A stretch of 64,000 nucleotides of DNA from Squalus acanthias (taxonomy: Eukaryota). The translations under genes were made by a program, and so were the position numbers. Under the pieces are notes generated by a model. The model searched no databases. It worked only from the letters and a program-made list of their open reading frames with translations, and was not told the origin of the DNA. Shown in pieces: positions 12,168 to 14,473 of this stretch (positions are counted from its first letter, which is position 1; each line of letters starts with the position of its first letter). The stretch is taken from the NCBI GenBank assembly GCA_030390025.1, contig JASTWF010000334.1:124001-188000 (forward strand), in the 5' to 3' direction.

Positions 12168-14473
12168 TTACCCTTTTATTAGGGCCTCCCAACGATTTCG
12201 GAGTGCTTTCCTTCTCTTTTTACAGGATAACTTTAACAGACACAACACCATGATTAGTTGTACTACTACTATTGTGTGTGAACCTATTTGGATCCATGGA
12301 GGGATCTCGACATTCAAACCAAGTCCCACCAGGGCGGGGAAGCCATTTCTTTTATTTCTTCCCCCGCTTCCCTGTTCCGTTGTTTGAGGGTGTAGAAGTG
12401 TTTTTGAGAGAGTTCAACTTTCTTCATTAGTTCTGTGAGGTGTTCGGGCAGAGGAGGAATTTCATACCCAAACCATGTTACGTATTGCTGCAGGTCCTGT
12501 ACCGTGTCGTTCACCGTGGGGTGTACCGTGGTGAAATCTGAAATGGGGATGCTGCGCTCTTGCGCCACCTGAACCTCTGTGTGGTGTTTGAAGCTGAAAG
12601 TTTTGTCGGCGACAGGGCACCAAGTGTCTCGGTGTACCCGATACTGGTCCACACTCGTCGTGAAGCAGTACGTCCCGTTGCCCGTGTATGCTATCTGGGG
12701 TGGAACGTGGCCCTGGGCCATCACCTCCATGGTGCATTTGATGGGCTCTGCACTTTCCGATTCAAACCCACACACTGGTCGAGCGAATGTGTTCAGGTGC
12801 TGGGGACACAACACCACGTGCGCGCCCCTGCTCTGGCACCCCTTGAGGTCAGTGCTGGTCATGACGTGCACCCACTTTATTATGAACGGTGGGGTCCCAT
12901 TATGCCGTGCACCCCGTTCCTCAGGACGCCAATGTTTTCTACCCGGTACACCGGTGCTGGCCGCAGTGACCTGCCCATTACCGGCATCCGGAGTACAATC
13001 CCCATTACTGTGTGGTTGGACTGGCCACAATCAACTGGAACCGGGTAGGCCTCTGAGGCCAGCCGGAGTTGACACGGGCTCATCAGATTATCATACGGGC
13101 TCAGCGCGGTGAGGTGCCGGTTGCTAACCCAGGAAGGGTCGCGACCTTGCTGCAGGTCCTCCAAATTACTGCGCCCTTCGTTCAGCAACCACGCACCGTA
13201 CAACACACACGCATCATTTCTAGCTGCCTGTGCCGACGCATTCCGATCCTCCCTGATCAGACTATTGATCGTCTGAGCGTGCGCCTCCAGCTCGGCTATG
13301 ACCTCCTTTAAATGTATGGTCTTAGCCTGGTCCTCCCGTAACTCTGACCCCTCTTGCTCGTTACCCTCCCCCAGTATCTTTCGCAGCTGATCCCTTAGAG
13401 TGTTGACCTGCATCTGCAGCTGTGCATCGTCCCAATTGTTTATCAGAGACGTTCCTGTGCTGAACGCTGTGGCAGCATCGTTGAACACCCCTCTCCTCTG
13501 TCTCCCCGAACCATCGCGACTGTTCGTATTAAATGTATATAACCCTTCCCAACTTTCATCCCCGTAACTTAGCTCGTAAAACTGGCGGAGCATCACTTTC
13601 AACAAGGTCTCGTAAAGCCTCTCCGTTTCTGCCGGACACCACTGGGGCAGCTGCACTCGGGTTAAATTCAAAATGACCGACGCTACCTCATAATGTACAT
13701 CATGATACAAGATCTTTCTGGTCGGGACCAACACGAACCCGTTTCTCGGTCCCGGTGTGGTGGCGGGACACCTAATCTCTGTTCCCTGTGTCGGTGGGGC
13801 TGTGGGCAGGGGCTTCCTCTCCTGTGCAACGAGTTCTGTGGCATTTACTGTGTTGAGAGGGTCTGGGATCACGCAGGAGTCCAAACTCCGATCCCGGCCC
13901 CGGAGTCCTGCCATTGCCGTGAAAAGGCAATCGACACACGCATCAGGCAGCTCCGTTCCGACCCCCACACACACATGTAAATCCCCTGCTCCTCCTTCCA
14001 CCACTTGTTCCAGCACACTTCCACTCCCCCATTCGTCCCCGTAATCTGTCGGTACGTGTCATCCCCCAGTCTCTCCCAGTTCGCGATCTGTTACCCTAGG
14101 CCTGGTCCAACTTTCTCAACCATCGTCCCAAGGGAATGTGTCCCTCACATTTTAAACAAATGCGCTTCCCCTCGGTTGCCCTAACCCGTGTGGCTGTGAT
14201 CTGCAGATTGGGACACGGTATGGATGCTTCCCCAAATGTGAAGCCGGTGTGGTTGGACTTTCTAGTCGAATTCGACCCCAACCACCCCGGCCACCTTCCC
14301 TCGTGGAAGTAAGCAGCCATCCCGTCCGCGTCCCCTGTCCAGCCCCGCTGTGTCACGGTGGGTCCGTTTCCTCCTGTGCAGCCGTAGAGGAAGGACACCT
14401 CGGTGTCTCCTCTCTCCATGTGTCCCGTTCCCACCAGAATTATGAGCACGCTCAGTCTTAGGGTTGTCTCCAT
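12168..14473 (-). pseudogene. env: Envelope/fusion glycoprotein, foamy/loki/paramyxo-F-like, frameshifted
   Basis: Splice acceptor at 14500-14501, signal peptide METTLRLSVLIILVGTG, furin site RQRR (~13492-13503) then GVFNDAATAFSTGTSLIN, heptad region, Cys-rich region, WWD motif, TM IGSHTIVVVQLIMVLCLL, basic tail, stop at 12168. Assembled from ORFs 14096-14521, 12880-14016 and 12314-13030. Confidence 0.8.

Follow-up and report, generated by a model that had tools for sequence, protein, structure and literature searches.

The question raised by this locus is whether a retroviral envelope (env) gene in Squalus acanthias carries an immunoglobulin (Ig)-like domain ahead of its fusion core and, if so, what part such a domain might play. 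The window, by which we mean the whole 64,000-nucleotide stretch analysed, contains the gene on its minus strand in a broken state. The env ATG at 14473 opens a frame that reads LQITATRVRATEGKRICLKCEGHIPLGRW and terminates at a stop at 14098-14096. This frame holds a hydrophobic signal-peptide-like stretch (14417..14473, with its boundary placed by eye), a conserved segment of approximately 65 amino acids (YGC...HEGRWxGWLGSNS, 14219..14416), and the B-strand cysteine (14147..14149) and C-strand tryptophan (14122-14120) of the Ig-like domain. A second minus-strand frame reads WERLGDDTYRQ...EQGIYMC...RVSIAF, with the F-strand cysteine of E-Q-G-I-Y-M-C at 13971..13973, and the fusion core begins in a third. 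The original prediction had recognised Ig B-strand and F-strand signatures here, and both are present with the sequence and coordinates it gave. Its description of a domain read across frameshifts at 13930-14215 was right in that the frames do change, but only one change (near 14084) falls inside that interval, the other lying near 13886. We place the domain (approximately 100 amino acids, strands A-G) at 13923..14218, interrupted in the window copy by the stop at 14098-14096 and the frame change near 14084. It is followed by a short cysteine-bearing segment and a Pro/Thr-rich linker (13771..13922, containing the second frame change), by the ectodomain with its predicted F-type fusion core (12300..13770, with a furin-type site RQRR at 13503-13492 and more breaks downstream) and by a transmembrane-like stretch (12228..12296), with the env stop at 12170-12168. 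When the four broken env pieces of the window were compared with Pfam, no family was matched.

Whether the two cysteine motifs ever belong to one reading frame was answered from natural open copies, in place of a majority sequence of the copies. A DNA search of the genome (3.7 Gb) gave 1296 candidates, of which 40 were scored and 30 kept as loci, the window copy included. A single open frame contains both motifs at 14 of these 30 loci, and at eight of the 14 the signal peptide is also in frame; at three loci (L002, L003 and L027) one open frame runs from the signal peptide to the furin site. The motifs that the original prediction could join only across frames are thus parts of one frame elsewhere in the genome. 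A protein search with the Ig domain yielded 5395 candidates, and the 150 that were scored showed 65-100% identity. One locus, on contig C3630, matches the window in the flanking sequence on either side (94-95% identity) and is therefore a duplicate of the same insertion. Since this duplicate reads through the Ig domain unbroken, the breaks within the domain of the window copy must have arisen later. The duplicate also retains gag-pol, and its env is split by a 4.2-kb insert bearing a long ORF (L032:1644-2873).

The window gene is a broken env copy of a many-copy endogenous retrovirus (ERV) that is likely to be related to snakehead retrovirus (SnRV). It is enclosed, on the same strand, by a 3' LTR (10852..12018) and a 5' LTR (24955..26243) that pair with 96.6% identity over 1166 columns. 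Five bases from the end of the 5' LTR is a primer-binding-site-like stretch (24949-24932, minus strand) with a TGG start, which we take to resemble the 3' end of an arginine tRNA. A C-terminal integrase tail (14618..14823, minus strand) is the only remnant of the pol of this copy, and the place of its gag-pol is occupied by a nested LTR element (14824..24888, minus strand; 484-nt LTRs, 98.4% identical) with further nested pieces. This nested element has a decayed F-type env tail (approximately 20200-20650) and contains a gamma-type env (17373-18329, TLV_coat E 1e-15) accompanied by an integrase (18934-19704), as well as a LINE reverse transcriptase (RT) piece on the plus strand (15217-16698). 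Elsewhere the window contains a 33-34-nt minisatellite array (32039-34486), with a related short array adjoining the 5' LTR (26464-26733), and pieces of a DDE_Tnp_4 transposase at 46980-47531 (minus strand) and 51897-52322 (plus strand).

The affinity of the element was judged from the pol of the C3630 duplicate, which comprises RT, tether, RNase H and integrase and whose RT has foamy virus RT as its best solved relative. An F-like Env and a dual RNase H (tether plus RH) are present, as they are in lokiretroviruses. The dual RNase H is common to all retroviruses. Over 47 positions of the DISNGFW...IFHQ block, a hand count, made in place of a tree and with the alignment of the PMC7947760 supplement as reference, gave 36 identities to SnRV, 23 to HERV-L and 22 to Loki-Sau; within that printed alignment DISNGFW occurs only in the SnRV rows. 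Membership of the lokiretroviruses was rejected on this difference (22/47 against 36/47) and on the absence of the P-F-G motif, the Loki RTs of the same source having P-F-G where the element has P-Q-G. The RT count makes it likely that the element is an SnRV-like ERV and not a lokiretrovirus, the likeness being one of RT. SnRV-like ERVs (CmiERV lineage I) have been reported in the elephant shark in the available part of PMC4422223, and lokiretrovirus carriers numbered 0/3 among the chondrichthyan genomes in the available part of PMC7947760. A search of the CmiERV supplement for the W-x-K-W-W motif by short DNA words gave no matches and is uninformative.

The first substantive issue is the nature of the N-terminal domain. 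We consider it very probable that this segment represents a divergent member of the Ig superfamily, with a predicted Ig fold and nearest to the I-set pattern, and several individually weak tests agree in supporting the Ig fold that had been proposed. The B-strand cysteine, the C-strand tryptophan and the F-strand D/E-x-G-x-Y-x-C stand at the canonical spacing that is the hallmark of the Ig superfamily (I/V-set). Both cysteines and the tryptophan were found in 28 of 28 homolog rows, made up of 23 genomic rows picked by a pattern demanding Cys and Trp and five database proteins not so picked. The HMMER check that had been suggested gave Pfam Ig_3 matches in 24 of the 28 homologs (best E 2.9e-4), at scores of 14-19 bits that do not reach the curated cut-off of 30 bits. 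A host I-set profile, built from exons of 30 loci with two rows in the wrong translation frame retained, scored the 28 viral segments at a median of 9.0 bits (minimum 5.2); the maximum among 1120 shuffles was 5.8 bits and none attained the viral median. Profile-to-profile alignment of the viral domain with the host I-set by hhalign covered 69 columns at a score attained by none of 100 shuffles, with a probability of only 9.7%. The viral segments correspond to I-set domains in their A'-B spacing, G-x-x-P turn, C-strand Trp and E-x-G-x-Y-x-C motif, and in the distance of 61 residues between the cysteines. Antigen-receptor V domains were rejected as nearest kin: with a host sample of 26 rows from 30 loci, the profile score was attained by 6 of 100 shuffles and the median by 89 of 1120. 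A domain-only profile searched against the PDB gave eight matches at E<10, seven of them Ig-superfamily chains, the best being CRTAM (E 0.36, aligned end to end); PDB sequence searches with the whole natural ORF or with flank-diluted profiles gave no matches. In the Atlas, I/V-set clusters appeared at 0.90-0.93, ranked beneath mollusc clusters (one source).

Structure prediction points the same way at low confidence. The two AlphaFold models are weak, with a mean pLDDT of 42 (model 1) and 40 (model 2) and approximately 50 in the Ig domain. For model 1 the matches listed by Foldseek and VIA were Ig-type chains almost throughout, the Foldseek matches to the Ig domain having E values of at least 0.057. 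The best VIA match of model 1 among 48,161 chains reached Z 5.9 (rmsd 3.2, 92 aligned), and residues 22-111 of model 2, which is one natural open frame covering domain and ectodomain, matched Ig V domains with Z values of 5.2-5.8. The order of the strands and the neighbours recovered fit a two-sheet A-G sandwich (Z <=5.9, rmsd approximately 3, 80-92 aligned, pLDDT approximately 50), and Z values under 8 such as these may reflect merely a common arrangement. The possibility that the 65-amino acid segment preceding the Ig domain is itself a second, degenerate Ig domain was also considered and rejected, as model 1 gave it no support, with a pLDDT under 50 (approximately 30-45 over the segment). 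Further conserved cysteines occur in strands A, B, E and G of the Ig-like domain and probably form additional disulfides.

The suggestion that the domain is a captured host module fared less clearly. The B-F cysteines, the C-strand Trp and the E-x-G-x-Y-x-C motif make it plausible, but no donor was found. No host Ig protein matched at E<0.001 when 1.84 billion proteins were searched with the profile, the best match in the PDB stood only at E 0.36, and among host Ig domains in a 60-locus sample the best pairs reached 24-28% identity over 85-87 amino acids. As no donor was found, any capture cannot be recent, and because the motifs are canonical an old one is likely, the domain having probably been taken long ago from an animal I/V-set gene. 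The lack of a donor, the sub-threshold scores and the low pLDDT would also suit a beta-sandwich evolved by the virus that merely resembles the Ig motifs, in which case nothing was captured and the topology may not be truly that of an Ig domain. A V-C-x-x-C motif that the heads of two sister env families appear by eye to share with the Ig domain would fit as well, those heads being without Ig signal: seven profile comparisons of sister heads with the Ig domain gave probabilities of <=1.2%, so that the resemblance is not significant, and Pfam gave no Ig match to them. Against this explanation stand the spacing, turn, Trp and Cys motifs that align with the I-set, at scores exceeding every shuffle, and the match of both models to Ig folds in the domain region, and we regard it as distinctly unlikely.

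The remainder of the ectodomain is predicted to adopt a paramyxovirus-F-type fusion fold. The protein has a signal peptide, a furin site, heptad helices, a transmembrane stretch and, in the model, a domain III fold, which are features of F-type class I fusion proteins. Residues 191-434 of model 2 matched hPIV3 F (1ztm) at Z 8.1 (rmsd 3.6, 130 aligned) and the core matched foamy Env (8rm0) at Z 7.4, the predicted likeness to both lying in the domain III region; Foldseek against the PDB placed hPIV3 F first (E 6.6e-4), followed by RSV F, NDV F and foamy Env. In sequence, PF00523 matched none of 20 members by HMMER, and a HMMER search of the core against solved F chains found none at E<10. The position proposed for the Ig domain, between signal peptide and F-like core, is borne out both by the order of parts and by these matches of model 2. 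When model 2 (L004:3-1922) was compared with predicted viral structures, the Env proteins of walleye dermal sarcoma virus (WDSV) and WEHV1 were best (E 3.9e-7 and 1.5e-6, 664-726 columns), yet with low TM-scores (0.15-0.17). This suggests that these atypical Env proteins may be F-type and related, although WDSV and WEHV1 differ from the shark element in their much longer Env and epsilon-type pol.

Within the F-type group the arrangement seen here differs from those of lokiretrovirus Env, foamy Env and F. Lokiretrovirus Env, as represented in the available part of PMC7947760, shares with the shark Env the F-like core, the R-x-K/R-R site and a first strand of the form PGP-x-x-G-[IV]-x-L. Unlike the shark Env, it lacks a head, the PGP motif of the core coming immediately after the signal peptide in 13 of 13 sequences with an N-terminus, in a sample of 13 of the 23 Env in the file, 12 of them with an N-terminus, to which Loki-Xtr was added. 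Foamy Env has its receptor-binding domain (RBD) inserted within domain III, and in both F and foamy Env the Ig-fold domain II belongs to the core, unlike the N-terminal head of the shark Env (PMC11468914, in its available part).

The Ig head is conserved in sharks and a skate. Proteins of Rhinoraja and Pristiophorus carry it, as do further contigs, and a Rhincodon protein has part of it; the search of 1.84 billion proteins returned 13 matches, all of them env-related. Between subfamilies the Ig domain shows dN/dS of 0.08-0.38 in 6/10 pairs with estimable dS, these being approximate counts into which post-insertion decay also enters, and the domain is under purifying selection. Identity between subfamilies is 66-84% in the Ig domain against 59-83% in the core, and the Pro/Thr linker is more variable than the Ig domain that it sets off. 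As had been proposed, the head is absent from the related env at 35743-36110, and from 14 relatives of it: the viral Ig profile matches only the Ig-env locus in the window, and these genes have a signal-like stretch approximately 25-30 codons ahead of the first core cysteine. All are decayed, in which state loss of the Ig head and primary absence are indistinguishable. In two sister env families other Cys-rich heads precede the Pro/Thr linker. A second abundant env family (L041, L050, L052 and relatives) combines the same core with a different Cys-rich head of approximately 250 amino acids, and in other members (L051, L053, L055, L060-L062 and L066) a much shorter N-terminus takes its place. 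A third type of head (approximately 130 amino acids, Cys-rich) is carried on the same core by P0015, P0017 and P0018, in Pristiophorus, Mustelus and Chiloscyllium.

Conservation of the domain equal to that of the core, together with additional conserved cysteines (strands A, B, E and G) suggestive of a rigid unit, could indicate a purely structural element, a cap rich in disulfides that has no ligand and keeps the prefusion trimer stable or shielded. However, the domain is separated from the core by a more variable Pro/Thr linker and homologous cores exist without it or with other modules, and we think a structural role improbable.

We consider it somewhat probable that the Ig domain acts instead as an attachment head, carried by the surface subunit on a Pro/Thr stalk. 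The grounds for this reading are where the domain lies, the fact that modules are exchanged there, and the analogy with gamma-type Env. As far as the available part of the preprint goes, gamma-type Env proteins have swappable receptor-binding domains, with an IgV-like RBD in MLV and FeLV Env and a SIRP-derived RBD in Env-Dbi and Env-Per of mammalian ERVs (Hotzel, bioRxiv 10.1101/2024.03.17.585361). The presence of other Cys-rich modules, or none, before the linker in the sister envelopes is the pattern described for those swappable domains. An Ig-type head on a retroviral Env is on the same evidence already known (MLV RBD, SIRP-derived Env-Dbi), and the shark Env resembles the gammaretroviral RBD and Env-Dbi/Env-Per in having an N-terminal, separate Ig-fold domain in the surface subunit. 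The canonical B-F disulfide is retained in Env-Dbi, together with one extra. Env-Dbi is a mammalian, gamma/alpha-type Env with a SIRP donor, as described in that source, whereas the shark domain sits on a predicted F-type core in cartilaginous fish, is nearer to the I-set and has no detectable donor. Counting against an attachment head is the equal conservation of domain and core, whereas a receptor-binding domain often shows greater variability.

If the domain is an attachment head, it would stay on the surface subunit following furin cleavage, so that a trimer would bear three heads on flexible stalks. Their partner might then be a protein of the cell surface, possibly an adhesion molecule of the Ig family, and binding would bring the fusion core to the membrane, which is the job of a separate attachment protein in paramyxoviruses. 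To our knowledge the F protein of paramyxoviruses and pneumoviruses has no attachment head of its own.

The original prediction had named immune decoy as an alternative to receptor binding, and we judge receptor binding the likelier of the two. A domain that mimics an immune ligand would engage an inhibitory or adhesion receptor of leukocytes from virions or infected cells, with attachment residing elsewhere. The best sequence and fold neighbours include the immune-cell surface proteins CRTAM, CD8alpha, CD79b and BTLA, the high conservation of the domain would fit a fixed host partner, and related envelopes exist without the head. None of those neighbours is a significant match, however, and immune Ig domains are abundant in the PDB. 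In gamma-type Env, moreover, it is the RBD that occupies this N-terminal position on a Pro/Thr stalk. Viral Ig decoys are usually separate genes. Taken with these points, mimicry of this kind seems to us unlikely.

A wider proposal, which we advance tentatively as possible but rather doubtful in its entirety, is that a lineage of retroviruses of cartilaginous fish captured an I-set/nectin-like adhesion domain from an animal and grafted it onto an F-type fusogen to give a one-protein attach-and-fuse entry by adhesion-molecule mimicry. Sister lineages would then have swapped heads, and head exchange would have arisen independently on an F scaffold that foamy, walleye and paramyxoviruses also have. 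The interest of such an arrangement is that F-type fusogens normally leave attachment to a separate protein, as in paramyxoviruses, or to an inserted RBD, as in foamy viruses. An N-terminal Ig head, with sister families that have other heads or none, would offer a natural series on how class I fusogens gain receptor specificity, and the range of F-type envelopes would come to include an SnRV-like lineage among the retroviruses of sharks and rays. The host-gene origin of retroviral Ig-type RBDs is treated as an open question in the available part of bioRxiv 10.1101/2024.03.17.585361, and a domain keeping the canonical Cys-Trp-Cys core may provide an independent case. The available portions of the literature covered, including PMC7947760, PMC11468914, PMC5512871, PMC9967133, PMC13709493, PMC10699275, PMC10072453 and bioRxiv 10.1101/2023.10.26.564294, yielded no case of an Ig head joined to an F-type Env. 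Among the database proteins, two gene models of Pristiophorus (P0004 and P0003) combine pieces of env with other proteins, a C2H2 zinc-finger protein and a Niban-like protein, and these fusions may be either annotation chimeras or exonised env.
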